Positions 19,191 through 35,866 of a stretch of DNA of 64,000 nt are shown here, in pieces. Position 1 is the stretch's first letter. Each line of letters starts with the position of its first letter. The stretch lies in IMG/VR virus record IMGVR_UViG_3300020577_003088, positions 2,842 through 66,841 of that record. The stretch is one strand, 5' to 3'. Origin of the DNA: a virus. Made by a program: the position numbers and the translations under genes. The notes beneath the pieces were generated by a model. It saw nothing but the letters and a program-made list of their open reading frames with translations. It was not told where the DNA came from and did not search any database.

Positions 19191-22100
19191 CCCCGCAAGA
19201 AGAGGAAGAACTGCGCCGGTCCATAGAGGCGTCGCAGAAAAGACCGGGGCTTTCTGCGCTTGAGCAGCGCGCCTTTGGCGAGCAGCGAGCGCCTGAAGAA
19301 GTTGCGCAAGATCACGAAATCGCCAGCCAGGTCGGCGTGCCCGCCCCTGCCGTTCCTTCGCAACGTGAGACCTATCAACGTCTGGCGCGCACGCTCGACG
19401 CTTCCCGCCGCACGCGCGAAACGCCGCGCCTGCAAGCATGGCTTGCCGAGGGCGACAACTACGCCCTTGCGCAAAACGACCTCGATCTTCTGGGCCGGAT
19501 TGAGACCTATGCGCAGTCCATGCGCGATGCGTTCGATCCGAAGAGCGGACTGTCGGCGGGCGAGCGCGTCTCGCGCGTCCTCTTCCCGGTCAACCGCCAG
19601 ACCACCGTTCCCGAAGACGTGCAGCGCGGCATCGACCAGACAATCTCCAGCTATCGCGCTGGCGAAGCGCAGATGCGGATTGCGCGTCGTCTCGAAGACG
19701 AACTCACCGGCCTGAACGACCGGGGAGAAATGAGCGTTGACGTTGGTCTTTATCGAACCATGCAAGAGCGCGACCGTTTGCGTCGCGAGGGATTGCAGGG
19801 CGACGCTGGCGAAGTCGTCGAGACCATTCCGAATTTCCTCGGCGTATTCCCCGCAATGGCGCAGGGCGTAATCAACACGGAAACTGATCTCTTCAAAGAC
19901 TATGAACGTCAGTTCCGAGAAGAGTATGCGAAAGACCCGGCAGGCACCGTCGTCGGCGCCGCAGCGACAGCGCCGTTGCAAATGCTGATCGGCGTCGGCG
20001 GCATTCCCGCAGGCTTCATTGAGGGCAAGAACCGTTACACCTACCGTCTCGAAGCGGGCTCCGCCTATGAGACCATGGTCGGTATGAAGACCGTGGACGG
20101 ACAACCGATCCGCCCGGAGATCGCCGCCCGCGCCGCGCGCGACTACGGCATGATCGCGGCGGGCATCGAAAATATGGACTTTGTGCTGATCGGGTCGCTG
20201 GTGAAGCATACGCTTGAATCGGCTGGCCTGAAACTCTCAAGCCCGATGGCCAAGCGCATGGTCATGGCTATGGCGCTGCGTCGCTATGGCGTGGAAGTGC
20301 TGAAGCAAGGGGCCTCTGAAGGCGTTGAAGAAGGTAGCCAAGCCCTCGCGGAAATCCTAATGCGCGAGCGCGCCAAGGCTGACGACGGTCGTCGTTTCGA
20401 GGCGCTTGACCTTGGCCAGGCCGCAGCGGAAATCGGCCAATCCGTCAAGATCGGCGCCATCTTCGGCGGTGCTGTCGGCGGCGTTGCTTCCATCCCTTCC
20501 CTTGCGCTTGATCTCGACGCTGTGGCCGCGACAGAGCGCAATCAAGAAGCCTTCCGCCAATTCGTCGAACGCGCGCAATCGGCGCAACTCGCAAGGCTTT
20601 CGCCGGAGGCGATGGAGTCGGCGCTTAACGCGGTCACGGCGAACACGCCTATTGAGGATGTCTCCATCAATGTAGACGCTTTCACGGAATACTTCCAATC
20701 CAAGGGGCTCGACCCCATGCGCGCGGCGGCGGAACTTGGCGTGACGCCCGAGCAATATGACGCCGCCTATAAGGCGCATGGAGAACTGCGCTTCAAAACC
20801 GGCACGGTGCAGCAACGCATGATCCCCACGCCGCACTATGCGGCGCTGGCGGATCATATCCGTGTCGGCGACAGTCTGACGCCCGCCGAAATGAAGATGC
20901 AAACGGCGATCTTCCAGAACACTTTGGAAACGGCGCTGAAGAAGACGGCCTCGACGGCGGAAACGATTGAGGCCGCACGCAAGGTCGGCGACATCATGCG
21001 CGAGAAGTTCGCGCGTGCTGCGGAAGAAGGCGGCCCGAGGCCGGAATATGCTGATCGCGTAGCGTCTCTGTGGCAGGCGCTCTTTCAGACATTGGCCACG
21101 CACATCCAGCAAAGTCCCGAGCTTTCCGCTCGCCTCGGCACAAACGCAGAGGAAATCTTCAGCAAGTTCGGCTTCGACGTGCGCGGCGTGGGGCGTGCGA
21201 ACGATCCGGTAGATTTCCGTACTGTGCGCGGCGACACGACCGAAAACCCTTTCCGCTGGAACGATGAAGCGCCGCAGCCGCGTGAAGACGCCTACGATGA
21301 TCTTGGCGATGGCCTTGTCGAGCAACCGAACTATCTCGACCGTGCGCGCCAGGCGATGGACGAAATGGGCGATGCGGCGGAGCCGACGCCTGGTCGCGAA
21401 GTTCTTGAAGGCATTCCTGACGACCGCTTGATCGAACCGCTGGCGCTCGCCATGGCGGCCAAGCTGCGTGGCGAGTTCGATGCACAACTGGTGATGGATG
21501 AAATCCTCGGCCAAGCCGAGGACATGCTCTATGTCGAGCAGGCCGCCGAGGAGCGCGCCAGCGAGATCATCGACGAAGATGAAATGGCCGACGACGCAGA
21601 AGCATCGCTGGCCGACGACGAAGAGCTTCGCGCCGAGGTCATGGATCGGCTGGAAAATCTGCCGCCGGATGTGCCCTTCAACGCCATCCCTGACGGCGTG
21701 ATCGTCGGCGTCGCCTTCCCCAAAGGCGAGGCGTTGCTGACCCTGCGAAAGCCGACAGAGGACGGCGAGATCGCCACAAGCTGGGGACAGACGCTCTACT
21801 ATACGGCGGGCGAGCACGTCATTCTTGGCGAGGCTGAAGGCGATCCCCGGCCTGTTCGTCGCGACATTTTTGAAGCGACATATGAGCAGGCCGAAGACGG
21901 ACGCTGGCGCAAACGCCATGACGTTCCTGTCGGTTTCTGGACGGCGGAAGAAGATGGCGTCATCAACGCCATCGAAGGACCGGAGCCCTACAAGGCGGGC
22001 GATGTCATCCTGATCGGCGTTCTCGGCGAAATGTGGCCGACGAAGGCGGCTTCTTTCGAGGCGAACAATACGATTGTTGTGGAGGAAGACTACGAGGACC

Positions 22101-25100
22101 GCGCGAGCGAAGTCTTCCATGCGATCACGACGAGCGGAAAAGTGTCATCGGCGCCGCGTCGCGTCTACGACACGGAGACCATTGGCCGTGTCAACCCCGA
22201 ACATACGATCATCATTCAATCGCCGCGTCATAGCGATCTGATGAAGATGACCCGCTTCACGCGGCAAGTGTGGGGAGAGAGCGCGCCAGGCATCGTTCGG
22301 TTCATGGAGGACGACGAGGGCAACCTTTACGCCTCCCCTGCTGCGGGCATGTTGCATGACCGCATGGTGGACGTGCTGAAACAGCACGGCGTCAATGTTT
22401 CTTATAACTCTGTCCACGGCTTCATCATCCGGTCTGGCGATACGCTTTATTGGGCGAACGTCGAATACGGCCCGATGAAGGGGACGCTTCTCGAAGATCG
22501 CGTCGAGGTCGAGTTCGCGAAACGCAATAAGCTGAGTGAACTCTTCCAGTCTCCCGCTGATGCTAGCGCGGCGACGAAAGAGGCGGATGTCCCGATGGCG
22601 ACGGCGCGGGCGCTGCGCTATATGGCGCTCGCTCAAGGCGGCGCAAACAATGCGGCGGTCTATCGCCAAATGGCCGCCGAGTTCAACATGACGATTGGCT
22701 CTGTCAAGGCGACGCTTTCCACCTTGAGGGGGCGTATCCGCAAGGCGGAAGAGGATGGGACGCTAGACGATCTTGGCCAGGAACTGTCCATGTCCGCAGA
22801 GGACATGAAGCGGTTTGCCGCGCCGCAGCAACGGGGACGCTCTCCCGAGGGAGAGGCGCGTCGCCTGAAGGCGGTGCGCGCGCGCGTTGAACGCCGCCGC
22901 GCGTCCGGCTCGCCGTCTGGTTACGCACTCCGAAAGAATATCGAGATCAGCACGCGCGACACGCGCGAAATTGTCCTTCGGTTTACGGACTACAGCGCCC
23001 AAGGCATGTCGCGAGCGGAAGCATTCGCGCAACTGGAGCTTGACGGCGGATGGGCGGAAGGCGTCGCCAACAAAGTCGTGTCTCAACAACGCTCTGCGCT
23101 TCAGAAGCGGATCGACCGCGAAGGGCTGGAGGCTGTCGCGGCGTCGCTGACCCTGACGCCTGACATTCTCGACGCCTATATGGAGCGCCGGACGGCTGGC
23201 GCGAAACGCAACGAAGAGGAAGGCCGGATCATCGAGCTTTCCATGCAGGGCGTCAAACCCGCAGTGATCGCCGAGCGCCTGCGTCAGCCGGTCGAATCCG
23301 TTCGCAACACAGTGTCTCTGATCCGCCGGGTGCAGAAACTCAAGATGATGGGGCGCTCCATCGAAGAGATTGTCGCCTTGACCAAGCTGTCGCGCGGTCG
23401 GGTGGAAGAATACTACGCCATCCCCTATATTGGTCTTGGCTCGCGGTCGCGGTTCGGCTGGGGCGACACCGTGGCCGAACAGAGGCAGACCGGCGAGAAC
23501 ATTCGCGCTCGGCTCTATGAGCTATTTGACGCCGATCCGCTGGCGCTGATGAAGGAGCACCAAGCGCGCCTTCGCGCGGAGGGCTTCCCGCCCGTCGATC
23601 TGGGCACCTTGCGTCGGTATGTGCGTAATCGCTATCTTGGAGGCGACAATGGAAATGGACGATTTCCCGGCGGCGCCGGAACTGACGCCAGCGGAGCGAG
23701 CGGAAGCGGAGCGGTGGGCGGCCCAGGTGCGGTCGGTGGCGCAAGCCCCGCTGCCGAAGCCCCGGTTCCCGGCCAAGTCGCAAGCCGAACGGACCCGGCT
23801 GAAGACATTGCTGTCGCGGGCGGGTTTCGCCGCCGAGGGCTCGGCGCTTTACAGCTTGATCCCGCCAGTCCGTGGCGCACGCCGGTCGCGCAAGGCGACG
23901 CTCTAGCCGACAATAGCGCCACTCTTCCCCTCTCGGAAGAGGAGCGCGCGGCGCGTCATAGCCTCTTTGCGTCGATCCTTGCCGACACGTCGCTGGAAAC
24001 GCAAACCGACGCCCGCGCCTATACGCCGGGCCAAGCCTTCGCGCATCCCGTCAAGGGCTGGGTGCAAGTCCCCGCCGGGCGAACGGTTCCGGCGGAGACG
24101 CGGCGCTATTCTCTGGCGGTTCCGCTGCGCGCGCATCGCTCTTGGGATGTCGCCTTCAGTTCGGAGGCGACCTATCTTGAAGTCGAGATCATCGGCAAGA
24201 TGGCGGTGATCCACGGCGCAGCCACGCACCCGGCGCTACGAGGCGGCGGCGTCGGCACGCAGCTTTACCGCGACGTGATCGACGCGCTGCTGGCCGAAGG
24301 CAAGCAAGTCTTCTCGGATCAATCGGTCTCCGATGACGCAATGCGCGTGTATGAGCGCTTGCGTCAAGACGGTTACAGTGTGAAGCGGGTCGGCAATGGC
24401 GCGCTGTCAAAGCTGACAGTCATTCGCGGCTATAGCCCCCAGAACACAACGCAAGACGGCGCCTCTATCTACGAGGTCGCGGGCAAGCGTGACGCTGATG
24501 AAGTCTTCCAGACCAATTCCCTGCGGACGGCGAACGCCAAAGTCGCCGAAGACTTGATCGCGCAAGGCGTGCTCCTGACCGATTTCAAGACGCCAGAACT
24601 CGACGACCAGTTCCGTTATCGCCGCGCTGCTTCGCTGCGTGACGCGCCCGTGGCGGTCTATACCCTTCCCTCCACCCGCCAGACGGCGAAGATGGAAGTG
24701 ACGGTCACGGAGGCGCCCGCTTCGATCTCCGCCGCCAATCGCGGCTACCAGGGCCTTGCGACCATCAATATGGAGTATGCGGGCTCTACGGAGTCTGGTC
24801 GTCGCGGTCATGCCAAGGGATCAGCCGCCGACGCGCTGCGGGTCTTCTCCCTGCTTTATTCGATCTTCATGTACGACATGCGCGAACGTAATGCGCGCGG
24901 CTATGTGTTCACGGGCGCCACGCCGGAACTCTCGCGGTTCTATGCGTATACCATGAGCAAGATCGACTTCCCCGGCTACACGCTCTATTACGCGCCGCAA
25001 GCCGACACGTTCTTCTTCATGCGCAATGGCGAAGCCTTGCCTGATGCCTATGCGGGCGTGAAGCCGCTTCGCCCTGATGCGCTTGGCGAGGTCTATCAGG

Positions 25101-28100
25101 ACATTTTCTATTCGGCGCTGGAGCGTGCGCTTGAAGCCTTGAAGGTGAAAGAGGCGACGGCGGCGGAATGGCGCAAGCTAATTGTCTCCCCTGCGGAAGT
25201 GAAGCGCAGCGTGCAGCGCGGTCCCGACAACAAGCCGATGATGGACGCCGAAGGCAAGCCGGTGATGACCGAGCGCGTCATCCCTGAAAGCGTGCGTTTG
25301 CCCGGCGTCAAGAGAGATGAGATCGACTGGACGGGTCTGCTTGATCTTCTCGACTTCATGTCTGAGTCGCCGCAGATGGCGCCCGTGAAATTGAGCAAGG
25401 ATCAGCTTGTCGATTTCGTGCGCCAGCGCGGCGTCAACGTCGAGGTTCATGGCGAGGACGAAACGACTGGCGACGCTGTAGATTTCGATACATGGCGCGA
25501 TGAAAACGAAGACGCCATCTACGAACGCGAGCGCGAAATTATCGACCAGCAATTCGATGAAGACTATAGCGCGCCTGATCTGGAGGTCGTGCAAGGGTCG
25601 AGCGATGTTCGCGACGTGCGAGACAGTATCGCTTACTATCAGCGACAAATTGAGAGTACGGAATACACCATTCGCAACATGCTCGCAGGGCGCGGCATGT
25701 GGGATCGCGAAGATATAGAGCGCCTGCGCGCGAAGATCGCGGGATACAAGGAAGACATTATTCGCGAACAACGTCGCCTTGGCGAGGCGCCAGCGACGGA
25801 CCCTTACTCGTTGGATATGTTCACGGGCGCATGGGTGATTAGCCTGATTACGTCAGCCGGTCGTGAGCAACCCGTTGCGACTTACTGGGACGAAGACGTA
25901 GCGAGGCGTGCTCTGGCGGCATACCAGAGCAATACGGCATACTCTGACATCGGGACGACGTTCTCGCTGACCCGAGAGTTCTTGACGCAAGAAGTCGAGC
26001 CGGAGTTTTCCGAGGAAGAAATCAACAGCTACTACGTCATAGATCATGACGCAGATGACGATGTTGTGGGAGGCCCCTACTCGTCAGAGGACGAGGCCGA
26101 AAGAGACATGGAGGATTACCTCCGCAGTCACCGCGAAAAAGCCTATGATAACTTCGTTGACGGAGACATGATCTGGGCGCTGGAGCAAGCCGAGCAAGAC
26201 CTCTGGGACGATTACCTACACGGGAACGGCAATCACCGTGTCGCCTATAGCGAGTGGACGACCAAAGGCGGTAAAGACTACCAAGCCGTTCGCCTGTCGC
26301 TGCCGCCGCGTAACCGCGTGACGGCGACGCCGGAAGTTGAGCATGTACCTAACCACGCCATCGGCTCGCAATACGTTCTCGTGGACGCCATCACAGGGCA
26401 GCGCGCGAAAAGCGTCAGCAGCAACCTCTATTTCGCGACGCGAGAAGAAGCCGAAGCGGCGGCGGAAAAAGGCGACGCATGGTTCCAGCTAGACGAATAC
26501 GGCTTCAGAGATAATCACTTTCCTGAGAACAACATTCTCGGCTGGATACGCACGAAGACCTACACCGACGCCGATGGCCGCAAGGTGCTCTTTATCGAAG
26601 AGGTCCAACCCCAATGGCAGCAGAAGGGGCTTGATCGCGGCTTTCAGAAGCGTGTGAATCAGCGTGTCTGGCGCAAGATCGTTCAAGAAACAAAAGACGC
26701 GCACGATAGATATGACGCCCTTGTCGCCGCCGCTGACGAACGACTTGCTTCGTGGAGCGCCGATACGGGCGTGCCCATTGACGACAATCTTCGCAGGATG
26801 CGGTCTGACGAATGGGTGATTGCTTACAGAGACGATACGGCCAACTACATCCGCGCCATTGCGCGCGACAGTGAAGTTCTCAAGGACGTTGATCTGGCCG
26901 ACGAAATCGCGGCGCGAATTGCGGCGGCGAAAATACAAGAGGAGACAAGACTTGACGCGACCCGCTATCGCGTGACGCAAAAGGTGGGTGATTACGTCGT
27001 GGTGCGTGGCGATTACCGCACCATGGACATGGCGAATGATGAGAAAGGCTACCTTGATCGTCAGGGGTACGAAGTCAGCATCACCGAAATCAATTCCGGC
27101 ATCCAAGTCGAAGTCTATCCGCCGACAGGGGTCGATCTCGGCGCCGCGCTCGATGCAGCGGACGCGGATGTTCAGCGCGCGCAACAGGCCATGGAGGACG
27201 CTCGCTCGCCTGCGGGTGCTGTCGCCGACATGCCGTTCAAGCAAACCCCGGCGGCGGCGGGCCTGTTCATGAAATGGGCGATCCGCTACGCTGTCGAGAA
27301 TGACTTCGACGCCGTGGCATGGACGACCGGCGCCCAGCAGGCGAAGCGCTATAATCAGTTGGTCGATCATATCGACGAACTGCGCTGGCAACCTGATCCC
27401 AATGACCCGGAGGCCGGACGCCTTGCCGCCATTCAACGCGGCAACATCAGAAGATGGATCACGGTCGGCAAAGGTCTTCCTGGCGCGGCGCACGCGAGCG
27501 CAACGAGCGACGGCACGCTGGATGAACTTGTCGGTAAGGAGCTTGCCGATAGACTGCGGGCGGCGCCGACGAAGGACGAAGAGTTCTACGGCGTAGATGG
27601 CTACCAGAGCGTGTCCGGCGTCAATCTTGAGTTCGGCGGCGAAGGCATGAAAGGCTTCTATGACAAAATCCTCGTGAACATCACGAACGATCTCATCAAG
27701 AAGTCCGGCCAGCGCGTGAAGTCTCTCGGCCTCGGTATTGAGAAATCAGGCGCCTTCTCCGGCATTCGTCCGGCGCGGACGATGTGGGAAGTGGTCGCTC
27801 CCGATGGGGTCGTCACCTATCGCTCCATAGAGCGCGACACTGCGCAGTGGAATGCCGATCAAAGCAACGCGGAGAACGGCAACGACTACGGCGCCGCCTA
27901 TACCGTGCGCGAGGCGCACGATGACATGGATGCGGGAGAGGCGCAGCCGTCCTTCGACATCAACGATGAATTGCGCTCCATCGCCATGGGCGGCTTCCCC
28001 TATTTGCAGGCGGACGGCTCCACGAAGATGGGCTCGACGGTGTTCGACCGTTGGGGCTCTTCTAATAGCGGCGAACTCCGCGCCGCTGTGATCCGCCTCT

Positions 28101-31100
28101 TCGAGGCGCAAAACCTCTCCACCTTGCTCCATGAGAGCGGCCACGTCTTCCTTGAAATCTTCCAGACCATCGCCAACGACAAGGATGTGCCGCCTGAACT
28201 GCGCGCCATGTGGGCGTCCACCATGGCGTGGATGGGCAAAGAGCCTGGCGAAGCGCTGACCCGAGAAGATCACGAACTCTGGGCGCGCACGTTTGAGGCG
28301 TATCTGAAGGAAGGCAAGGCGCCGTCGCTTGCGCTACGGGATGTCTTCCGCATCTTCCAAAGCTGGTTGCTGAACGTCTACCGCCAAGTCAAGGGCATGC
28401 TCGTCGGTCGCGACGGGCGCGTCTATGGCGACGTGAAACTCTCGCCCGAAATCACGGAGGTCTTCGACCGCCTGCTGGCGAGCGAAGAAGAGCTTGCCGT
28501 GGCGCGTGACTTCATGGAGGCGGATCGTCCGTTCTTCCAGACGCGCGAAGAGAGCGGCATGTCCGAAGCCGCGTGGGCTGACTATGTGAAATCCATCGAC
28601 GACGCGCGCATCGAGACGGAGACCGCGCTGCGTGTCAAGGCGATGGACAAGTATACGCGCAAGGAGCGCCGCGAGTGGCGCGTCATGCGCGAGAGCTTCC
28701 GCGCGACGGCGACGCGCGATGTCGATACGGACATGGCGCGACGCGCCTATGAGTGGCTGGCGGACGGCACATGGCGCCCCCTGCCCCCGGAGAAGGATGA
28801 AGACGGCAACGACATTCCGCCTGACCCGGCTTACGACAAGCCTGCCGATCTGCCGGATATGCGCCTCGACACGAAAGAGGTCGCAACCGTCTATGGCGAC
28901 GAAGCGCTCGCCAATCTGCCGCGCGCGCTGAAGCCTGCGACAGAAGAGGATGTGGATGCGCTGCTTGCCGACGCGCAAGCCGTGAAGCGTTCTGGCAAGG
29001 TCCGCAAGGCGCTGCGCCTTAGCGCATGGGTTCGCAAGCGCGGCGGCGTCAAGGATGTGGGCGGCGACATCGCGGCGGCTATCGGCGGGGCGAAGACCCG
29101 TCCTGGCGTCATAAATAACGCGACCGGCAAAGACCTCGACGATCTCGCGGTGGCGGCTTGGGAAGACGGTTTCTTTGGTCCGAAGCCCGGCAAGGCGTCG
29201 GCTGATCCCGATGAGACGGGCGGCTCGACGCCGGGCGAACTTTTCCAGATGGCGGGTCCGAAGTCCAAACTCGTCGACAAGAAAGTTCTGAAGCACGCCA
29301 AGCGCATGCACCGCAAGAAGAAGGCGAACTCCGAAATCTGGGCGGAGACGGCGGCCATGAACCAGCCGTGGTATCGCAACGAGAATGGCGAGTGGGTCAC
29401 GGAGTTTGAAGACGGCGCGATCCGCGTTGTCGTGGACGGCAGCGGCAAGCTGGAAGAATACATCGACTATGAGAGCGCCACGAGCCACTATCCGCAACTG
29501 AAGCGGTATGGCGTCAAGGTGCAGACGCCGAAGAAAATCAAGGATCGTGCGCTCGGGCGGTTCATTCCGTTTCTGAAGAAGATCGAGGTCAACGCGCCGA
29601 AGCCGATCCGCGAAAGCACGGTGGCGCACGAAACGCTGCACGCCATCGATGACATCGAGGGTCGCAAGTACGGCCTCGGCATGCGCTACGGCCTACGCCC
29701 TGGCGAACGTCGCGCGTTCAATGTGGAGTTCCGTCGTCGCTGGACGATGGCGCAACGCATCGCCATGCCGCCATGGGTCACGGAAGAAGACGCTGTGAAT
29801 TGGGCGCTCGGCGGGCGGACAGATGACAAGCAAGCCGTCGCGGCGGTCGAAGAAAAGTATAAGGGCCTTCCCCTGCCCCGCGAGGAAGTGAAGCCGCCGC
29901 AGCGACGTGCGGAGCCGTATCAGCCGCGCCGCGAAGAAGAGCTACCGAAGATTTTTAATGAGGATCACGAAGAGGAAACCCGCCTCTCTGTTCCTGGCCG
30001 CGTGTTCTTGAGCCGGGCGGAAATCGCCAATGCGCGCAAGAAGGATGACACGCTGCCGGTCGTCACGGATGAGACCGAGATCGACTTCGACAAGAAGCTG
30101 TCGGAACAAAATCCGGTTGTCGCTGACAAGTTGCGCAAACTGCTGAAAGAGCACAATGCCTTCGGCATCTACAACAAGCGTGGGCGCTCGATCTATATTC
30201 GAGGCGAACAGCGCCGCTATGTCGGCGGGTATACGCCGCCTTATGAACCTAAACTTGTCAGCCACAACTCTTCCGAACGCTCGCGCCAGGCGATAGCGTT
30301 GGAAGGCGCCATCATGCGCGCGGTGCAGAATTGGGAGGATGACGCCTATGACATAGGCTACCGCGTCGCCTATGCAAAAGCGGAGGGACTCACGAAAGAG
30401 GCATTCGCCGAGCAAGAGATTGAGGAGATCACGAGCCGCGCATGGGGGCACGAAGAGTTAGAGGACGGAACATCAGTCTCTTTGATGCCTGAAGAGAATA
30501 AGGAGAGCATTCGCAAGATCGTTGATCTGGCGTGGGATCGCGTCTCTATCGACCACGAAACGGCCTACGGATCGTCGGTCTTCGACTCTCTGGCCAATGA
30601 ACTCGGCACGCTCGGCGCCATTCAAGCGCTTGCGGATGAAGGTATTGTTGCGGGACGTTTCCGGTCTCAAGGGACGGATGTCGGCCAATCCGTCGTCGTC
30701 TTCGGCCAAGAGTTCACCGGCCATGACGCTGCGCGGACTCGCTGGGGCTGGTTCATGTCGCTCGCGGGCGCTGAAGATGGCGCCACTGTCAGCGGCGGCG
30801 CGGCGCGTTTTGGCACGGATGAAGAGATTGCTTCGCTTGTCGATCTGGTGATGGCGGGCGCGAGCGCCAAGCAAGTCTTCGATCACCCTGTCTATCAGCG
30901 GATCGTCGCGCACGATGAGGCGGCGGTGTCCACCCTGCCCGCCGATTTCACGGAAGAGCAGCTTGCGGCGCGCGTCTATGTAGAAGGTCGCAACGCCGCG
31001 CAAGTCATCGACACGGCCAAGCGCGCCTTCGAGCAAGCCGCTGGCGGCATGACCGCCTATGATCGCAAGGCGACGCTGGTGTTCGGCATTCCCGGCGCGG

Positions 31101-34100
31101 GCAAGTCCACCTTCTCGAAGTCCATCGCGGCGACCCGTCAGGCGGCGCTCGTCGATAGCGATGTCATTCTGGAGCAAATCCCCGAATACGAGAACGGCTA
31201 TAACTCCAGCGCCGTGCGTCGCGAAGCGTCGTTCCTGCGCGATGTCGCTCTGGCGGAAATGATCGCCAGCGGCCAGAACCTTGTGATCGAGCGGATCGGC
31301 GACACTGACGAGCAGGCGCTTGGCCATATCCAAGAGCTTCGCGCGGCGGGCTACCAGATCGAAGTCGTGCATGTGGCTATCGGTCAAGACGAAGCCGTGC
31401 GTCGCGGCGCGCTCCGCTTCGTCGAGACAGGCCGCTATGTGTTGCCGCGCGTCTATGACAAGGCGGGCGACAATACGGGCAAGGTTTTCTCCCGCACCAT
31501 TGAAAACATTCCTCTCGATGGGTATATAGAGATCAATGCCGAAACTCCCCGGAACCAAGCGCAAGTCATCCGGTCGCAAGGAAGCCAAGACCTCCTTGCC
31601 GGATTGGCACCCCGACTGGCGTCCCCCGCCGGAAGCCCTGGCGCGCGCACGCGCGGTCGTGGACCGGCAGCGCCAGACGAACTCTTCCAGTCCGCCGACG
31701 ACGGCCTCCGTCCCGCAGGCGCCCTCTTCCGACAAATCGTGGGAGGAGATAATCGCGGAGGAACTGCGGAGTCAGGAAGCGCTCGACAGCCAGCGCCCAA
31801 ACTAGAGCCGATCTCCCGCCCGCCGACGCAGGCGGACGGCACGGTCGTTCTGACACACTACAGCGTCCGGCCCGATCTGACCCAGACTGACCCGGCCTAT
31901 CATGGCGCCGGTTTGTCCCGTCGTAGCGCCGACAATCAGCGGGGCGCTATCCCGCGCACTTATTTCGGCATCGGCGTCGGCATGCCCGGCGGCTATGTGA
32001 AAGAGTATGGTCTCGGCGAGCACGTCTACCAGACACAAGTGCCGCTCTCGCGTCTCTATGATGCGAAGGCCGATCCTGACGGCATCGTTCGCGCCGTGAA
32101 TGAAGAGTTTGCCGGTCAGCCTGGCCCTGTCCGCTTCACCGAATGGGAGAAGCGGATCAAGGCGGCAGGCTATATGGGCTATTGGGTCAACATGCAGGCG
32201 ATCCAGCCGTCGATGGGGATTGTCGCGGCGGTGTTCCGGGCGATCCCCGTGGCGCGGATCGGAGACGTGCAGGAGCTTTATCAGTCGAGTTCGCTGCCGC
32301 TCATGAGCGACGAGCAGCGTAAGCAGCTTGAGGCCGAAGGCTTCGATACCAGCCGTATCTTTTGGCGCGTTAGCAACGTCAGCGACGGACCGATTCGAGT
32401 AAGCACGCGCGGATTGATGGGAAATGGCGTCTATGTTTGGACGAAACGAACTGCCGTCAATAAAATTAAGAACAATACACGACTAAACGCCGTCGTTGTT
32501 CGTGGCGAACTGCCTATCATCGCAACGCAGCAAGAAGCCAAGCAAGCAATCGCCAATGGCGCGGCAGGCTATATTCTCGACGACACCTACAAAATGCCAA
32601 TGGCGGTGATTGTTGATCCTGAAAACATCCGTGTTGTGGCGAGTGTGGGGAGCGATGGGGTAGATGAACTCTATCAAGATCAGCGTCGCCCCTCTCTTGA
32701 GGAGTTCCGTGACGCGCTGATCGCCGATCTGCGCAACGAGCGCGCTGTCTATTCCTCTGACGACGATGCGGCGATTGAGGAACAAGAGCGGCTGCAAGCA
32801 CTTCGCCGCTGGTTTGAGGCGCGCGGCGTCAACCTCCAAGCCGACAAAGACGATCTGCGCCGTCAGATCGAGGCGGTTGTCCAGCGTGAGAAGAATAACC
32901 CGCTGGCGACGCCGCCGGACATCGCCGCGCAATGGTTCGGCTTCGAGGATGGCGAGGCGCTGCTGAAGGCGGTGAGCGGCCTGCCCTCTCGTGAGCGCGC
33001 CATTGAAGAGCGCATGACGGCGATGGTCGAGGCCGAGATCGGCGATCCGTTCTCGGATGGACGCATCGTCGAAGAGGCGCGTCTCGCCGCTCACCTTGAA
33101 GTGCAAGCGCGCCGCCTTGAGATCGAACTTGCCGCCCTGCAACAGGCGACGGGCGGTCGCGCCAAGCCGGTGGCGCAAGCGGCGAAAGCCTTCGCCGAAC
33201 GCCAGATCGGCATGATGACCGTCAAGCAGGTGCGGGGCTATGATGCTTTCCTCGCCGCCGAGCGACGCTCTGCGAAGGCCGCGCAAGAGCGGTTCCGTGC
33301 GGGCGATCTCGACGGCGCCGCGCTGATGAAGCAGCGCCAGCTTGTGAACTTCCATATGTACCGCCTCGCCCGTCAGGCGGCGGAGGAAATGGATCGCACG
33401 CAGGACTACTTCAAGAAGTTCGACCGTCCGACCATCCGCGCCAAGATCGCGACGCCGCATCTGGATCAGATCGACCAGGCGCTCGAAAGCATCGACATCC
33501 GCAAATCGCCGCCGTTCTCGGAGCGCCGCCGTCAAGGCTTCCTTGCATGGGTGCAGTCCATGAAGGATGCAGGCCGCGAGCATGAGATCGACGTTGATCC
33601 GCAATTTATGGAGCAAATCTCGCGCCGTCCGTTCAACACGTTGACCCTGTTGGAAGCGCGCGGTCTGCGGGACGCGATCAAGAACTTCGAGCACATCGGC
33701 AAACGCTTCAACGAAGTCATGGTGGCGCGACGCAAGCGCGAATACAACGAGCTTGTTCGTGAGCTTGTCACGGCCATCGACAAGAACGATCCGATCATCA
33801 AGGATCAGATCAAGGGCGAGAGCGAGAGCTTCTTCGAGAAGATGAACGATCTGCGCCTGAAGGCGCACGCCGAGCATACGAAGATGGAGTTTCTGTTCCG
33901 GCTGCTCGACGGCCTCAAGGATAATGGCATTGTCTGGCGCACGCTCTTCTTCCCCCTCGCGCGGGCGGAAGATGAAGAGCAAGTCATGCGCAATGCGTCG
34001 GCGGAGCGCATCGGCGCTATCTTCGGCGTCTATACCAACAGCGAGCGCGCCGCGATGTTCGGCAAGCGGGTGCTGGTGAACGAAGTCGCCACACGCATGA

Positions 34101-35866
34101 CAAAGGCCGAAATGCTGGCCGTGGCGCTGAATTGGGGCAACGAAGGCAATCGTCTGGCGCTACTGGAGGGCCATGGCTGGAACCCCTCGCAAGTCGAAGC
34201 GGTGCTCTCGCGTCTCGACAAGCGCGATTGGGATACGGTGCAAGCGATCTGGGACTGGATCGGCGAATACAAGCCCGCGTCATTCGCGTTGCAAGAGCGA
34301 CTGACGGGCGTCCGCCCCGCCGAGGTCGAACCCCTCCCCGTCTCGACGAAGTTCGGCGTCTATCGCGGCGGCTACTATCCGCTGCGCTATGATCCGCGCC
34401 GCAGCGAGAAGACCTTCAAGCGCGAAGAGAAGGTGAAGACGCTGGAGGAGTTCGGCTCCAACTGGATCAAGCCGCAGACCAAGAAGGGCCACTTGATCGA
34501 GCGCACGAAATCTGGCGGCCAGCGCGTGCGTCTCGATATGGGGGTGCTCACCGAGCATGTCGAGAATGTCATTCACGACATCACGCACCGGGAAGCGATC
34601 ATCACGACGCTGCGTCTTATCGAAGACCCGCGCTTGGCGGAAGCGATCAAGGGCGTGGTCGGCGTGCAAATGTATCGCGTGATCCGTCCGTGGCTCTCGC
34701 ACATCGCCGCCGATCAGCGCCAACCCGCTGGCGCCATCGAGCGTATCTTCTTGCGCGCACGCATGGGCGCCCAGGTCGTCAATATGGGCTGGAAGATCAC
34801 GACCGCGATTGTGCAGCCGCTCGGCCTACTGAACTCGGTGCCGCGTGTCGGCGCCGCCGAGATCGCAACCGAGGCGACCAAGTTCCTTGGCAATCCCTTC
34901 GCCATGAAAAACGCCATCGACTTCATCTTCGCCCGCTCGACGATGATGAAGAACCGGATGGATACGTTTGACCGCGATGTGCGTGAAGCGCTCGCGCGGC
35001 TTCGTGGTCGCGCCGAAGGCGATGTGGTCCCGGTCGGCATTCGTCAGTCGATGTTCTGGCTGACCGGCGTTCTCGACATGAGCGTTGCAGCGCCGACATG
35101 GCTGGCGGCCTACAAGAAGGCGATGAAGGGCAAGGTCGACAACATCAAGGCCGACGACGAGCAGGCCGCTATCGCCCACGCGGACAGCATTGTGCGGATG
35201 ACGCAAGGCGCGGGCGGTGTGAAAGACCTCGCCGAGATCACGGGCCGCTCATCGCAACTGATGAAGCTGTTCACGATGTTCTATTCCTACATGAGCAACC
35301 TCTACAATCAGCTTTATGTGGAGCAGGCGCCGGGCGTGCGGGGCAAGCAGATCAGCAAGGCGGCCTTTATCGGCAACCTCTTCTTCCTGTGGCTGGCGCC
35401 CGCCTATGTCGCCATGTTGCTGCAAGGCCGTGGCGACAAGGACGACGACGAGACGGTGGAGGAAATGCTCTGGCGTCAGGGTAAGGAGGTCGGCGCATAC
35501 CCGCTCCAGACCATCGTCGGCGTGCGTGATGTCGTGGCGGCGACCTCCAGCGGCTATGGCTACGAAATCAGCCCGGTCACGGATGTCGGCGTGACGACGG
35601 TCGGCGCGCTCTCCAAGGCGGGAGAAGCGGCCTTTGAGGGCGTGACCGGCGAAGATGGCGGCGTGGATGAGCATGAGCTTCGCGCGCTGATGAAGGATAC
35701 GACCATGGCGACCAGCTATTGGCTGGGCGCTCCTGGCCGTCAGTTGTGGACAAGCGGCTCTTATACGTCGGACGTTCTCACAGGCCGCGAGGAGACCCCA
35801 TGGGAAGACCCGGAGGCTTTCTGGAATGAGGGCCTGTTGAGGGACGCCAACGACCCGACCCGGTAA
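19187..35866 (+). CDS. Giant (5,559 aa) multidomain virion ejection / polyvalent effector protein in the gp16 slot
   Basis: Single uninterrupted 16,680-nt ORF. Motifs seen: GNAT (RGGGVGTQLYRDVIDALL), HESGH and HETLH (HExxH), P-loop GIPGAGKST with a zeta-toxin-like downstream region, sigma-r4/LuxR-like HTHs, and a C-terminal hydrophobic segment AAFIGNLFFLWLAPAYVAMLL. Confidence 0.8.
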   Translation: MTPQEEEELRRSIEASQKRPGLSALEQRAFGEQRAPEEVAQDHEIASQVGVPAPAVPSQRETYQRLARTLDASRRTRETPRLQAWLAEGDNYALAQNDLDLLGRIETYAQSMRDAFDPKSGLSAGERVSRVLFPVNRQTTVPEDVQRGIDQTISSYRAGEAQMRIARRLEDELTGLNDRGEMSVDVGLYRTMQERDRLRREGLQGDAGEVVETIPNFLGVFPAMAQGVINTETDLFKDYERQFREEYAKDPAGTVVGAAATAPLQMLIGVGGIPAGFIEGKNRYTYRLEAGSAYETMVGMKTVDGQPIRPEIAARAARDYGMIAAGIENMDFVLIGSLVKHTLESAGLKLSSPMAKRMVMAMALRRYGVEVLKQGASEGVEEGSQALAEILMRERAKADDGRRFEALDLGQAAAEIGQSVKIGAIFGGAVGGVASIPSLALDLDAVAATERNQEAFRQFVERAQSAQLARLSPEAMESALNAVTANTPIEDVSINVDAFTEYFQSKGLDPMRAAAELGVTPEQYDAAYKAHGELRFKTGTVQQRMIPTPHYAALADHIRVGDSLTPAEMKMQTAIFQNTLETALKKTASTAETIEAARKVGDIMREKFARAAEEGGPRPEYADRVASLWQALFQTLATHIQQSPELSARLGTNAEEIFSKFGFDVRGVGRANDPVDFRTVRGDTTENPFRWNDEAPQPREDAYDDLGDGLVEQPNYLDRARQAMDEMGDAAEPTPGREVLEGIPDDRLIEPLALAMAAKLRGEFDAQLVMDEILGQAEDMLYVEQAAEERASEIIDEDEMADDAEASLADDEELRAEVMDRLENLPPDVPFNAIPDGVIVGVAFPKGEALLTLRKPTEDGEIATSWGQTLYYTAGEHVILGEAEGDPRPVRRDIFEATYEQAEDGRWRKRHDVPVGFWTAEEDGVINAIEGPEPYKAGDVILIGVLGEMWPTKAASFEANNTIVVEEDYEDRASEVFHAITTSGKVSSAPRRVYDTETIGRVNPEHTIIIQSPRHSDLMKMTRFTRQVWGESAPGIVRFMEDDEGNLYASPAAGMLHDRMVDVLKQHGVNVSYNSVHGFIIRSGDTLYWANVEYGPMKGTLLEDRVEVEFAKRNKLSELFQSPADASAATKEADVPMATARALRYMALAQGGANNAAVYRQMAAEFNMTIGSVKATLSTLRGRIRKAEEDGTLDDLGQELSMSAEDMKRFAAPQQRGRSPEGEARRLKAVRARVERRRASGSPSGYALRKNIEISTRDTREIVLRFTDYSAQGMSRAEAFAQLELDGGWAEGVANKVVSQQRSALQKRIDREGLEAVAASLTLTPDILDAYMERRTAGAKRNEEEGRIIELSMQGVKPAVIAERLRQPVESVRNTVSLIRRVQKLKMMGRSIEEIVALTKLSRGRVEEYYAIPYIGLGSRSRFGWGDTVAEQRQTGENIRARLYELFDADPLALMKEHQARLRAEGFPPVDLGTLRRYVRNRYLGGDNGNGRFPGGAGTDASGASGSGAVGGPGAVGGASPAAEAPVPGQVASRTDPAEDIAVAGGFRRRGLGALQLDPASPWRTPVAQGDALADNSATLPLSEEERAARHSLFASILADTSLETQTDARAYTPGQAFAHPVKGWVQVPAGRTVPAETRRYSLAVPLRAHRSWDVAFSSEATYLEVEIIGKMAVIHGAATHPALRGGGVGTQLYRDVIDALLAEGKQVFSDQSVSDDAMRVYERLRQDGYSVKRVGNGALSKLTVIRGYSPQNTTQDGASIYEVAGKRDADEVFQTNSLRTANAKVAEDLIAQGVLLTDFKTPELDDQFRYRRAASLRDAPVAVYTLPSTRQTAKMEVTVTEAPASISAANRGYQGLATINMEYAGSTESGRRGHAKGSAADALRVFSLLYSIFMYDMRERNARGYVFTGATPELSRFYAYTMSKIDFPGYTLYYAPQADTFFFMRNGEALPDAYAGVKPLRPDALGEVYQDIFYSALERALEALKVKEATAAEWRKLIVSPAEVKRSVQRGPDNKPMMDAEGKPVMTERVIPESVRLPGVKRDEIDWTGLLDLLDFMSESPQMAPVKLSKDQLVDFVRQRGVNVEVHGEDETTGDAVDFDTWRDENEDAIYEREREIIDQQFDEDYSAPDLEVVQGSSDVRDVRDSIAYYQRQIESTEYTIRNMLAGRGMWDREDIERLRAKIAGYKEDIIREQRRLGEAPATDPYSLDMFTGAWVISLITSAGREQPVATYWDEDVARRALAAYQSNTAYSDIGTTFSLTREFLTQEVEPEFSEEEINSYYVIDHDADDDVVGGPYSSEDEAERDMEDYLRSHREKAYDNFVDGDMIWALEQAEQDLWDDYLHGNGNHRVAYSEWTTKGGKDYQAVRLSLPPRNRVTATPEVEHVPNHAIGSQYVLVDAITGQRAKSVSSNLYFATREEAEAAAEKGDAWFQLDEYGFRDNHFPENNILGWIRTKTYTDADGRKVLFIEEVQPQWQQKGLDRGFQKRVNQRVWRKIVQETKDAHDRYDALVAAADERLASWSADTGVPIDDNLRRMRSDEWVIAYRDDTANYIRAIARDSEVLKDVDLADEIAARIAAAKIQEETRLDATRYRVTQKVGDYVVVRGDYRTMDMANDEKGYLDRQGYEVSITEINSGIQVEVYPPTGVDLGAALDAADADVQRAQQAMEDARSPAGAVADMPFKQTPAAAGLFMKWAIRYAVENDFDAVAWTTGAQQAKRYNQLVDHIDELRWQPDPNDPEAGRLAAIQRGNIRRWITVGKGLPGAAHASATSDGTLDELVGKELADRLRAAPTKDEEFYGVDGYQSVSGVNLEFGGEGMKGFYDKILVNITNDLIKKSGQRVKSLGLGIEKSGAFSGIRPARTMWEVVAPDGVVTYRSIERDTAQWNADQSNAENGNDYGAAYTVREAHDDMDAGEAQPSFDINDELRSIAMGGFPYLQADGSTKMGSTVFDRWGSSNSGELRAAVIRLFEAQNLSTLLHESGHVFLEIFQTIANDKDVPPELRAMWASTMAWMGKEPGEALTREDHELWARTFEAYLKEGKAPSLALRDVFRIFQSWLLNVYRQVKGMLVGRDGRVYGDVKLSPEITEVFDRLLASEEELAVARDFMEADRPFFQTREESGMSEAAWADYVKSIDDARIETETALRVKAMDKYTRKERREWRVMRESFRATATRDVDTDMARRAYEWLADGTWRPLPPEKDEDGNDIPPDPAYDKPADLPDMRLDTKEVATVYGDEALANLPRALKPATEEDVDALLADAQAVKRSGKVRKALRLSAWVRKRGGVKDVGGDIAAAIGGAKTRPGVINNATGKDLDDLAVAAWEDGFFGPKPGKASADPDETGGSTPGELFQMAGPKSKLVDKKVLKHAKRMHRKKKANSEIWAETAAMNQPWYRNENGEWVTEFEDGAIRVVVDGSGKLEEYIDYESATSHYPQLKRYGVKVQTPKKIKDRALGRFIPFLKKIEVNAPKPIRESTVAHETLHAIDDIEGRKYGLGMRYGLRPGERRAFNVEFRRRWTMAQRIAMPPWVTEEDAVNWALGGRTDDKQAVAAVEEKYKGLPLPREEVKPPQRRAEPYQPRREEELPKIFNEDHEEETRLSVPGRVFLSRAEIANARKKDDTLPVVTDETEIDFDKKLSEQNPVVADKLRKLLKEHNAFGIYNKRGRSIYIRGEQRRYVGGYTPPYEPKLVSHNSSERSRQAIALEGAIMRAVQNWEDDAYDIGYRVAYAKAEGLTKEAFAEQEIEEITSRAWGHEELEDGTSVSLMPEENKESIRKIVDLAWDRVSIDHETAYGSSVFDSLANELGTLGAIQALADEGIVAGRFRSQGTDVGQSVVVFGQEFTGHDAARTRWGWFMSLAGAEDGATVSGGAARFGTDEEIASLVDLVMAGASAKQVFDHPVYQRIVAHDEAAVSTLPADFTEEQLAARVYVEGRNAAQVIDTAKRAFEQAAGGMTAYDRKATLVFGIPGAGKSTFSKSIAATRQAALVDSDVILEQIPEYENGYNSSAVRREASFLRDVALAEMIASGQNLVIERIGDTDEQALGHIQELRAAGYQIEVVHVAIGQDEAVRRGALRFVETGRYVLPRVYDKAGDNTGKVFSRTIENIPLDGYIEINAETPRNQAQVIRSQGSQDLLAGLAPRLASPAGSPGARTRGRGPAAPDELFQSADDGLRPAGALFRQIVGGDNRGGTAESGSARQPAPKLEPISRPPTQADGTVVLTHYSVRPDLTQTDPAYHGAGLSRRSADNQRGAIPRTYFGIGVGMPGGYVKEYGLGEHVYQTQVPLSRLYDAKADPDGIVRAVNEEFAGQPGPVRFTEWEKRIKAAGYMGYWVNMQAIQPSMGIVAAVFRAIPVARIGDVQELYQSSSLPLMSDEQRKQLEAEGFDTSRIFWRVSNVSDGPIRVSTRGLMGNGVYVWTKRTAVNKIKNNTRLNAVVVRGELPIIATQQEAKQAIANGAAGYILDDTYKMPMAVIVDPENIRVVASVGSDGVDELYQDQRRPSLEEFRDALIADLRNERAVYSSDDDAAIEEQERLQALRRWFEARGVNLQADKDDLRRQIEAVVQREKNNPLATPPDIAAQWFGFEDGEALLKAVSGLPSRERAIEERMTAMVEAEIGDPFSDGRIVEEARLAAHLEVQARRLEIELAALQQATGGRAKPVAQAAKAFAERQIGMMTVKQVRGYDAFLAAERRSAKAAQERFRAGDLDGAALMKQRQLVNFHMYRLARQAAEEMDRTQDYFKKFDRPTIRAKIATPHLDQIDQALESIDIRKSPPFSERRRQGFLAWVQSMKDAGREHEIDVDPQFMEQISRRPFNTLTLLEARGLRDAIKNFEHIGKRFNEVMVARRKREYNELVRELVTAIDKNDPIIKDQIKGESESFFEKMNDLRLKAHAEHTKMEFLFRLLDGLKDNGIVWRTLFFPLARAEDEEQVMRNASAERIGAIFGVYTNSERAAMFGKRVLVNEVATRMTKAEMLAVALNWGNEGNRLALLEGHGWNPSQVEAVLSRLDKRDWDTVQAIWDWIGEYKPASFALQERLTGVRPAEVEPLPVSTKFGVYRGGYYPLRYDPRRSEKTFKREEKVKTLEEFGSNWIKPQTKKGHLIERTKSGGQRVRLDMGVLTEHVENVIHDITHREAIITTLRLIEDPRLAEAIKGVVGVQMYRVIRPWLSHIAADQRQPAGAIERIFLRARMGAQVVNMGWKITTAIVQPLGLLNSVPRVGAAEIATEATKFLGNPFAMKNAIDFIFARSTMMKNRMDTFDRDVREALARLRGRAEGDVVPVGIRQSMFWLTGVLDMSVAAPTWLAAYKKAMKGKVDNIKADDEQAAIAHADSIVRMTQGAGGVKDLAEITGRSSQLMKLFTMFYSYMSNLYNQLYVEQAPGVRGKQISKAAFIGNLFFLWLAPAYVAMLLQGRGDKDDDETVEEMLWRQGKEVGAYPLQTIVGVRDVVAATSSGYGYEISPVTDVGVTTVGALSKAGEAAFEGVTGEDGGVDEHELRALMKDTTMATSYWLGAPGRQLWTSGSYTSDVLTGREETPWEDPEAFWNEGLLRDANDPTR

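Follow-up and report, generated by a model that had tools for sequence, protein, structure and literature searches.

The 64,000-nucleotide window analysed here (positions 2,842 to 66,841 of the IMG/VR virus record IMGVR_UViG_3300020577_003088) encodes a giant virion protein in which a kinase domain of the zeta-toxin family is embedded. The domain carries the complete catalytic set of this family and has lost the motif by which zeta toxin binds UDP-GlcNAc (UNAG). With a probability of roughly 55%, we consider it a complete zeta-family phosphotransferase that serves as effector module of an ejected IVP-D protein and whose acceptor is probably not classically bound UNAG. Ejected phage proteins act before phage gene expression, and their enzymatic cargo thus reveals which host functions a phage has to neutralise at the outset. 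Among such cargo, zeta-like kinases recur in thousands of copies, which are nearly all uncharacterised and for which phosphorylation of UDP-GlcNAc has been assumed. Since the UNAG-binding residues are missing in the present copy as well as in most of its subfamily, what these widespread phage-delivered kinases act on becomes a directly testable question.

The carrier protein and its upstream neighbour are encoded by the following genes:
17304..19190, + strand: internal virion protein with an endolysin-like N-terminal part (phrog_10475; phrog_1044 'endolysin'), in the position of BPP-1 Bbp11
19187..35866, + strand: giant open reading frame (ORF), a single frame of 5,559 aa (ORF list and translation)

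The two genes overlap at the stop of the first and the start of the second, and they share their contigs in three samples. Upstream, the giant ORF is preceded by genes for portal, capsid and nozzle as well as for T7_gp14-like and lysozyme-type internal virion proteins, and a tail fibre gene lies downstream; the ORF belongs to the structural gene block of a BPP-1/epsilon15-like (short-tailed) podovirus. A near-identical protein of 5,559 aa is encoded in an independent assembly (two differences, none of them in the kinase domain), and the first ~10 kb of the ORF are confirmed by two more assemblies, which display 5-8 SNPs relative to the window over 12-13 kb. An antisense ORF at 30473-31735 matched no family and looks like a shadow ORF.

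The last 983 aa of the giant protein are 27% identical to Bbp10 of Bordetella phage BPP-1 over 87% of their length (E 1e-79) and 39% identical to gp32 of Cobetia phage Carin1, and the giant ORF occupies the same gene position and order as both. Additionally, phrog_9880 matches the backbone of the protein at its N-terminus, middle and C-terminus. Bbp10 has been listed as a homologue of T7 IVP-D, i.e. gp16 (Hardies et al. 2016, PMC4819975). Judged by homology to this accepted member and by the shared gene position, the giant protein is an internal virion protein of the Bbp10 / T7 gp16 (IVP-D) type, the link to gp16 running via Bbp10. Its domains, as matched in Pfam, comprise LPD22 (E 2e-13), GNAT, Zeta_toxin and, weakly, LPD23, and an HExxH zincin is located in the backbone. 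With these several unrelated biochemical domains next to LPD domains, it is an IVP-D-type protein expanded into a polyvalent protein, and it exceeds Bbp10 in length by a factor of more than 2.5 (5,559 vs 2,052 aa). IVP-D proteins with cytoplasmic enzymes have been described before, namely the virion RNA polymerase N4 gp50 and the methylase H66 gp60 (PMC4819975). As in these two, an IVP-D homologue in the same position of the structural block hosts a domain able to work only in the cytoplasm; in contrast to them, the cargo is a string of effector modules including a small-molecule kinase. As the counterpart of T7 gp16 (IVP-D), the giant protein would reside in the capsid, in about a handful of copies if T7 gp16 is a guide, and on ejection would cross the envelope before the DNA, and its description as an injected protein in the earlier note, which had been made from the letters of the window, is plausible in view of its homology to Bbp10 and its gene position.

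Within the giant ORF, the kinase module comprises the following elements:
30842..30928, + strand: possible conserved N-terminal extension of the module, DLVMAGASAKQVFDHPVYQRIV... (tentative, by eye only)
30929..31591, + strand: zeta-toxin-family P-loop kinase fold (about aa 3915-4135)
from 31070, + strand: ATLVFGIPGAGKST (aa 3962)
31085..31111, + strand: Walker A / P-loop G-I-P-G-A-G-K-S-T (aa 3967-3975, with Lys3973), aligned to zeta GQPGSGKT
31154..31162, + strand: D-S-D (aa 3990-3992), aligned to zeta I-D65-N-D67
31163..31231, + strand: presumed acceptor-site segment VILEQIPEYENGYNSSAVRREAS (aa 3993-4015), with the subfamily signature K..IPEY.GG.G..AVHEES
31277..31303, + strand: N-L-V-I-E-R-I-G-D (aa 4031-4039), with R-I-G-D at the place of zeta G-T-G-R (GTXR)
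31400..31447, + strand: lid segment R-R-G-A-L-R-F-V-E-T-G-R-Y-V-L-P (aa 4072-4087)

The domain truly belongs to the zeta-toxin family, with a match far above chance. In Pfam, Zeta_toxin (PF06414) is matched with an E-value of 2.3e-18 and 66.8 bits (gathering cut-off 22.3 bits) over profile positions 17-177 of 199, and AAA_33 is matched as well (E 6e-8). This bears out the zeta-toxin / AAA_33-type P-loop kinase proposed in the earlier note, and the peptides quoted there are indeed encoded, with ATLVFGIPGAGKST at aa 3962, NLVIERIGD at aa 4031 (nt 31277) and RRGALRF at aa 4072 (nt 31400). The span of 31060-31480 given for the module covers its core, but its start lies one base out of frame (the frame begins at 31061), and it is narrower than the fold (30929-31591). 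The closest PDB match by sequence is zeta toxin (1gvn_B), and a subfamily profile searched against the PDB likewise finds zeta toxin best (E 3.3e-11), followed by PezT (5.4e-8). Hence, by fold and profile the domain comes closest to the small-molecule kinases of the zeta / PezT / AvrRxo1 clade and not to a structural ATPase, which had been named as the alternative. Ahead of the fold, 'GA....HP.V'-like stretches were noticed in several relatives, by eye only.

None of the catalytic elements is missing: Walker A, Asp3990/3992, Glu4035 and Arg4073/4077/4083 all occupy near-invariant columns. Across 152 domain copies, Gly3967, Gly3972 and Lys3973 are (nearly) invariant. Asp3992 is the counterpart of zeta Asp67, the catalytic base (PMC3062530), and the respective column holds Asp in 151 of the 152 copies; a loss of the catalytic Asp, considered earlier, has not occurred. 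Glu4035 aligns to zeta Glu116 and Arg4077 to zeta Arg158, whereas Arg4083 is the probable counterpart of zeta Arg171, judging from spacing and the 'T-x-R..P' pattern. All three lid arginines are invariant in alignment A1 and were found in 149-151 of the 152 copies. In the host cytoplasm, P-loop Lys3973, Glu4035 and the lid arginines of the module would bind ATP, and Asp3992 would serve as the base in passing its gamma-phosphate on to a hydroxyl group of a small host molecule, which most likely contains a nucleotide.

The acceptor side differs from that of zeta toxin. The GTXR motif (zeta Gly117-Thr121) binds the phosphates of UNAG (definition, PMC6362051; contacts, PMC3062530). In alignments to zeta and PezT, which map residues onto the zeta substrate site at about 16% identity, this motif is not kept, as zeta Thr118 is replaced by Ile and Arg120 by Asp. 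Moreover, zeta Thr128 has become His, and the exchange of Glu100 for Asp4019 is the sole conservative replacement among the UNAG contacts in the pairwise alignment, so that the domain lacks the motif set of UNAG kinases (GTXR + Thr128 + Glu100) and the UDP-GlcNAc target put forward in the earlier note is weakened. The subfamily mostly carries K/R-V-G-x at the place of GTXR, with Val or Ile in the Thr118 column of 142/152 copies and Asp, Gly or Ala as the commonest residues in the Arg120 column. In PezT, a Thr-to-Val change of the residue matching zeta Thr118 abolishes toxicity. Zeta residues ~77-95 are replaced by a shorter Gly-rich loop bearing the subfamily signature H-E-E-S. The segment aa 3993-4015, which the zeta alignment places next to the presumed acceptor site, keeps Gly4004 and Glu4013 and has undergone the exchanges K3995L and H4011R, seen in this copy alone, at columns that are 95% Lys and 95% His, respectively (no other Leu or Arg in 152 copies). 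These exchanges could reduce or abolish activity.

A genuine UDP-sugar kinase acting on UNAG or UNAM like zeta, PezT and ng_zeta1 would, on entry, block MurA/MurC and weaken peptidoglycan synthesis, as proposed for zeta-like polyvalent domains (PMC5512222). Among solved structures, zeta and PezT come nearest, and they also give the best matches by sequence and profile; the counterparts of the catalytic Asp, Glu116 and Arg158 are kept, and Asp4019 conserves the character of Glu100. Additionally, ng_zeta1 binds UDP-sugars in an orientation rotated by 180 degrees; hence, other binding modes exist that could accommodate a UDP-sugar target. With the GTXR motif lost, we nonetheless regard such an activity as unlikely.

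For the favoured zeta-family phosphotransferase, the acceptor would thus probably not be UDP-GlcNAc bound in the manner of zeta and PezT, its most likely class being a NAD-type molecule or nucleotide signal, as for AvrRxo1, or a UDP-sugar in a different binding mode. The Xanthomonas type III effector AvrRxo1 (PDB 4z8q) is a NAD / NAAD 3'-kinase without UNAG motif, which was shown by experiment to phosphorylate NAD and not UNAG (PMC5087710). It shares about 14-17% identity with the present domain, a likeness that carries no claim of a shared substrate, and in contrast to it AvrRxo1 is free-standing, has its own chaperone/antitoxin and uses another delivery system.

Zeta-like kinases are already known among the domains of polyvalent proteins (Iyer, Burroughs, Anand, de Souza and Aravind 2017, PMC5512222), where they occur in proteins of conjugative elements and in MuF fusions in phages and were assumed to phosphorylate UNAG; the present domain is a further member. 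Common to both is a zeta-like kinase among unrelated effector domains of a giant, presumably injected protein, including LPD22, LPD23, GNAT and metallopeptidase modules. Unlike in the published cases, the carrier is a podovirus IVP-D homologue and the UNAG motif is absent in the copy and its subfamily. An exhaustive library search yielded 2,717 relatives (cluster representatives) of the kinase domain, 887 of them with E<=1e-10, and among the best 150 relatives, 94 reside in carriers of more than 1,000 aa. The closest ones are orthologous giants with the module elsewhere (aa ~850-1,100 vs ~3960 here), which add PBECR5, DUF6782 and LPD23. Seven other carriers were compared with PHROG, and every one matched a virion-protein family (internal virion, portal, minor head or virion structural protein). 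Four more carriers display LPD22/LPD23 plus PBECR5 or ART-PolyVal beside the kinase in Pfam; ART-PolyVal is added by the carrier P0015.

A bolder and rather doubtful reading is that the virion-associated zeta-like domains (2,717 library matches) form a distinct kinase clade with an invariant G...H-x-E-S pocket of its own and without UNAG motif. Instead of a cell-wall precursor, they would phosphorylate a molecule of nucleotide type that serves the host in immunity or metabolism (NAD, ADP-ribose-derived signals or cyclic oligonucleotides, for instance), and the present copy with K3995L and H4011R would represent a re-targeted variant. If so, a few ejected enzyme molecules, phosphorylating within seconds of entry, would blunt abortive-infection signalling.

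Viral structure matches of the domain sit in phage proteins of 900-1,500 aa, one of them named Acb1; co-occurrence of the same fold and an Acb1-named region in one phage protein fits this bolder reading and is no proof of it.

Decay of the copy, in which K3995L and H4011R would have abolished activity and left the fold as a nucleotide-binding, structural or spacer element, appears very unlikely. Of the 34 columns conserved to 80% or more in the subfamily, 7 differ in this copy, which is among the most deviant of the 152 (subfamily median 2, 90th percentile 6), the two substitutions recur in no other copy, and the position of the module is unusual. Against this, all residues known to be needed for phosphotransfer by zeta and PezT are intact, three of the seven deviations are Val-to-Ile changes, the domain is identical in the independent assembly, and its codon-position GC matches that of the rest of the gene. 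Loss of a Lys and gain of an Arg within one segment would, moreover, resemble a relocation of charge instead of random decay.

A polynucleotide 5'-kinase repairing RNA or DNA ends, such as tRNA cut by host anticodon nucleases, as in the case of T4 PNK, is highly improbable. Here, scores are clearly higher for the zeta / PezT / AvrRxo1 clade, whose alignments also span more residues (186-202 vs 136-154 for PNK). Pfam gives Zeta_toxin well over its cut-off and no PNK family, nor does it detect a phosphatase or ligase partner domain anywhere in the giant protein. AvrRxo1 provides a precedent, as it was first read as a PNK-like domain and acts on NAD (PMC5087710).

An epsilon/zeta (PezAT) type II toxin-antitoxin module was rejected, since zeta and PezT (PDB 1gvn, 3q8x, 2p5t) are stand-alone toxins with an antitoxin, whereas the present domain is internal to one 5,559-aa ORF, with no stand-alone toxin and adjacent antitoxin gene and no epsilon or PezA family match by Pfam in the giant protein or the scanned neighbours.

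As an effector module of a probably ejected protein, the phosphotransferase may be released by cleavage at flanking E-L-F-Q junctions:
29237..29248, + strand: nearest upstream junction motif E-L-F-Q (aa 3351-3354)
31592..31678, + strand: Pro/Gly/Arg/Ala-rich linker after the fold (aa 4136-4164), read from sequence
31679..31690, + strand: junction motif E-L-F-Q (aa 4165-4168), directly 3' of the zeta module

Linker and adjoining junction (aa 4136-4168) have a GC content of 0.74. The pattern E[LV][FY]Q occurs seven times in comparison to 0.19 occurrences expected from shuffling, and the DNA of the motif copies differs synonymously. Orthologues carry similar [LF][FY]Q[GDS] motifs at the borders of the zeta modules and ahead of the C-terminal backbone. 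The E-L-[FY]-Q motifs offer a concrete handle on whether and how giant proteins get cut into working pieces. If they are cleavage sites, as hypothesized here, the zeta-bearing fragment would comprise aa 3355-4168, a stretch that also holds the weak LPD23 match and the HExxH string HETLH at aa 3481.

A single uninterrupted open reading frame of 5,559 codons, located at 19187-35866 on the plus strand of the window, encodes the giant protein that carries the zeta-like kinase domain (aa 3915-4135, nt 30929-31591). The peptide quoted in the earlier note is indeed found within this frame, with ATLVFGIPGAGKST starting at aa 3962 (nt 31070), NLVIERIGD at aa 4031 (nt 31277) and RRGALRF at aa 4072 (nt 31400). 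The span assigned to it there, 31060-31480, covers the core of the domain, but only the core, and its first coordinate misses the reading frame by one base. The window shows no difference from a JGI metagenome contig of 66.8 kb. An independent public assembly encodes a protein equal in length with only two differences, none of them in the kinase region, and the 5' 10 kb of the frame are confirmed by two further assemblies (5-8 SNPs compared to the window over 12-13 kb). DGR-type diversification was ruled out as the reason why the assemblies differ at two amino acids, since only scattered SNPs are present. An antisense reading frame of 420 codons over the kinase region, for which no family match was obtained, looks like a shadow frame of GC-rich coding DNA.

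The window represents a segment of a podovirus genome, in which the giant gene is placed between a lysozyme-type internal virion protein and the tail fibre.

Genes of the window in their order (nucleotide positions)
Terminase fragment, first in the gene order of the window
2861-4642, portal
7573-8295, plus strand, scaffold-like gene (240 aa; phrog_458 'protease' match, E 4e-52)
8306-9313, major capsid protein
13005-13595 and 13598-15907, tail tubular proteins
16377-16991, T7_gp14-like internal virion protein
17304-19190, lysozyme-type internal virion protein, directly before the giant reading frame
35902-38685, tail fibre, after the giant reading frame
Farther downstream of the tail fibre, DnaB and replication initiation genes

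Over its C-terminal ~980 residues, the giant shares 27-39% identity with Bbp10 of BPP-1 (2,052 aa), gp32 of Cobetia phage Carin1 (2,854 aa) and comparable proteins from podoviruses of Caulobacter, Vibrio, Pseudomonas and Xanthomonas, with the same gene position in all of them. For the epsilon15 subgroup, Hardies et al. (PMC4819975) list Bbp10 as the homologue of T7 IVP-D (gp16), and they point out that internal virion proteins host cytoplasm-bound domains, the virion RNA polymerase of N4 being an example. The backbone family phrog_9880 (2,231 positions) matches the giant in its N-terminal part, its middle and its C-terminal part, and the protein outside this backbone consists of inserted modules. 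Pfam detects LPD22 at the N-terminus, GNAT at aa ~1671-1725 and, weakly, LPD23 at aa ~3354-3412. Additionally, an HESGH string at aa 2982 (28130-28144) falls within the part of the backbone that is equivalent to the CLCA_X zincin-like domain reported for residues 700-1000 of BPP-1 Bbp10 (PMC3650047). Given the backbone together with LPD22, GNAT, LPD23 and the zincin region, the giant therefore agrees in its domain composition with the polyvalent proteins defined in PMC5512222.

Family assignment of the kinase domain is based on sequence as well as on structure comparison. Pfam Zeta_toxin (PF06414) matches aa 3961-4108 with E 2.3e-18 and 66.8 bits (gathering score 22.3), followed by AAA_33 with E 6e-8, and generic P-loop families remain under their cut-offs. 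The top PDB sequence match of the domain is the zeta toxin of S. pyogenes (1gvn_B), and a subfamily profile of 30 members finds zeta (E 3.3e-11) and PezT (E 5.4e-8) in the PDB. Modeling of aa 3915-4135 with AlphaFold2 from an alignment of 30 subfamily members gave a confident structure (pLDDT 93.3, pTM 0.90); in the Foldseek ranking, it is placed closest to zeta toxin (3q8x and 1gvn, TM 0.72), then to PezT (0.69) and AvrRxo1 (0.64-0.66), with all remaining kinases below 0.56. NCBIfam and PADLOC searches gave P-loop-level noise only. Neither of the two outcomes named in the earlier note as refuting was observed, the best matches being small-molecule kinases and the catalytic Asp being retained. 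The zeta-type assignment proposed earlier is right and the finding real, a module of known type in a protein of known type.

The residues responsible for phosphotransfer in zeta and PezT have been defined (PMC3062530, PMC6362051), and the alignment indicates that this set is complete in the domain. A Walker A motif, G-I-P-G-A-G-K-S-T, includes Lys3973, and Asp3990-x-Asp3992 aligns to zeta Asp65-x-Asp67, of which Asp67 is the catalytic base (PMC3062530). Glu4035 and Arg4077 align to zeta Glu116 and Arg158, respectively, while Arg4083 is, judging from its spacing, probably the counterpart of Arg171. Among 152 aligned domain copies, the phosphotransfer columns are conserved to 98-100%.

The GTXR motif of zeta (Gly117-Thr118-Gly119-Arg120) is replaced by Arg-Ile-Gly-Asp, a His occupies the Thr128 position, and among the residues binding UDP-GlcNAc (UNAG) a conservative change is seen only at Glu100 (to Asp). 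Thr118 contacts the beta-phosphate of UNAG, its exchange for Val rendering PezT non-toxic, and Arg120 is involved in phosphate binding (PMC3062530). Across the 152 copies, the Thr118 column contains Val or Ile in 142 and the Arg120 column mostly Asp, Gly or Ala, and loss of the UNAG residues is thus a property of the whole subfamily and not of the window copy alone. Instead, the stretch from the catalytic Asp to the following helix bears a signature of the subfamily's own, D-x-D-x-A-K-x-x-I-P-E-Y-x-G-G-x-G-x-x-A-V-H-E-E-S, in which Gly4004 and Glu4013 are each found in 151 of 152 copies and the His in 143.

We favor, at slightly better than even odds for the statement as a whole (about 0.55), an ejected kinase whose acceptor is of nucleotide type and is not UNAG in its classical binding mode. 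The giant would be housed in the capsid and leave it before the DNA, by which the kinase module would reach the cytoplasm, the sole compartment with ATP, and could phosphorylate a hydroxyl group of a host small molecule. A nucleotide-type acceptor is rated most likely because of AvrRxo1, which is the nearest precedent, being a zeta-fold kinase without UNAG motif that is injected into the target cell; it phosphorylates NAD and NAAD, not UNAG (PMC5087710). A UDP-sugar kinase employing a different binding mode, as ng_zeta1, comes next but is unlikely. The window copy deviates at 7 of the 34 columns conserved to at least 80% (subfamily median 2, 90th percentile 6). K3995L and H4011R (window 31163-31231) are unique to it among the 152 copies and replace a Lys and a His which are each 95% conserved; a basic residue at position 3995 is also present in zeta and PezT. 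Both Leu3995 and Arg4011 recur in the independent assembly. While these two substitutions could speak for a decayed copy, its catalytic set is intact, making decay rather improbable. A polynucleotide kinase is the least probable reading, as PNK-type matches are consistently second tier.

Evidence on how such kinases are carried was obtained from relatives of the domain. As a word-indexed homologue search with the zeta domain found nothing (the same holds for aa 3355-3914), an exhaustive HMMER search was required, yielding 2,717 cluster representatives at E<=1e-3 and 887 at E<=1e-10, and the cluster look-up returned metagenome proteins throughout. A near-identity DNA search in deposited phages gave no match, an IMG/VR scan with the single domain no confirmed relative, and tblastn of the domain only ~25% identity to zeta proteins of halovirus and Bacteroides phage origin. 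Among the best 150 of the 2,717 representatives, 94 exceed 1,000 aa (median 1,154, maximum 6,889), and proteins below 400 aa number only 26. At 37-42% identity, the nearest relatives are giants of 3,200-4,000 aa that are orthologous to the window protein. They share its N- and C-terminal backbone, but their kinase follows right after the N-terminal backbone (aa ~690-1,430, mostly ~850-1,100), compared to aa ~3,960 here. Two kinase copies per polypeptide occur in the relatives P0004 (6,889 aa) and P0009 (4,105 aa). In these orthologues, the kinase is accompanied by LPD22, LPD23, a PBECR5 nuclease, a DUF6782 metallopeptidase or sigma-70 region 4, and in another carrier, P0015, by ART-PolyVal. 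PHROG matches in all seven other carriers checked are virion families, labeled internal virion protein, the same with endolysin domain, portal, minor head or virion structural protein. Hence, the module is a recurrent and mobile cargo of phage proteins that are probably packaged in virions. Top matches from a viral structure library are zeta-like folds within phage proteins of 900-1,500 aa. One of them, the BFVD entry A0A6J5LTH6 (1,134 aa), is named 'Anti-CBASS protein Acb1' and contains a zeta-like fold that is 24% identical to the query; one polypeptide would there hold both a cyclic-nucleotide phosphodiesterase and a kinase.

Zeta-toxin-like kinases have already been listed among polyvalent-protein domains, in conjugative elements and MuF fusions of phages, with wall weakening via phosphorylation of precursor sugars as proposed role (PMC5512222). 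In contrast, the kinase of the window sits in an IVP-D (Bbp10-type) protein, a probable ejection protein, from a podovirus lineage that has the module regularly but at changing positions. Further additions, as read from the alignment, are the loss of the UNAG-binding motif in the window copy and most of the large virion-associated subfamily, the conserved signature that this subfamily has in the presumed pocket, and the two unique substitutions in the presumed acceptor pocket of the window copy. The searchable literature yielded no experiments on zeta-like kinases of this phage-borne kind.

The motif E-[LV]-[FY]-Q occurs seven times in the giant, at what look like borders between modules, with 0.19 copies expected.

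E-[LV]-[FY]-Q copies in the giant (window positions)
22538-22549, aa 1118
24500-24511, aa 1772
25088-25099, aa 1968
29237-29248, aa 3351
31679-31690, aa 4165
32273-32284, aa 4363
32666-32677, aa 4494

Most sites follow Gly/Pro/Asp-rich stretches, and several coincide with the limits of homology to orthologues. Behind the zeta fold, which extends to about aa 4132, come a Pro/Gly/Arg-rich linker and then ELFQ at 4165-4168. Related [LF]-[FY]-Q-[GDS] motifs are found just after the zeta module in the orthologues P0006 and P0017, just before it in P0002 and P0048, and also directly ahead of the conserved C-terminal backbone in orthologues. At DNA level, the copies show synonymous differences and, beyond the 12 motif bases, no similarity in 15 bases on each side. 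These differences and dissimilar flanks rule out a recombination scar, so that selection acts on the motif as a peptide. It resembles the sites of P1-Gln proteases (TEV ENLYFQ/S, 3C LEVLFQ/G), and we hypothesize that the giant is cut at these junctions. Autoproteolytic release of domains from polyvalent proteins has been predicted by Iyer et al. (PMC5512222).

No protease with P1-Gln specificity was identified. The candidate labeled 'protease' by PHROGs is the 7573-8295 product. This protein has no Pfam or PDB match, and its 42 homologues reveal no invariant Ser/His/Cys/Asp set; lacking a conserved catalytic set, it was ruled out for the Gln junctions. As it is encoded directly upstream of the major capsid gene, it is probably a scaffolding protein, and the 'protease' label is doubtful.

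For the modules at aa 4169-4497, 3355-3914 and 1122-1971, no PDB sequence match was obtained, and those scanned separately gave no Pfam match. Residues 4367-4497 (32285-32677, ~130 aa), between two junction motifs, differ in composition (GC 0.52, GC3 0.57) from the rest of the frame (about 0.62 and 0.72) and may constitute a recently acquired module, with no PDB sequence match and no significant Pfam match (sub-threshold YlxR, E 0.015 only). The stretch aa 1122-1771 (22550-24499) comprises helix-turn-helix-like repeats (weak DUF1670, HTH_23) followed by GNAT and is likely another effector. A second HExxH string, HETLH at aa 3481 (29627-29641), follows the weak LPD23 match, an arrangement like that of P0002, where LPD23 precedes the DUF6782 metallopeptidase. 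Outside the structural genes, the window also encodes an AAA-family ATPase (PF00004, E 2e-33; 57223-58686, minus strand) and an SPFH/Band-7 protein (E 2e-19; 61555-62529, plus strand).
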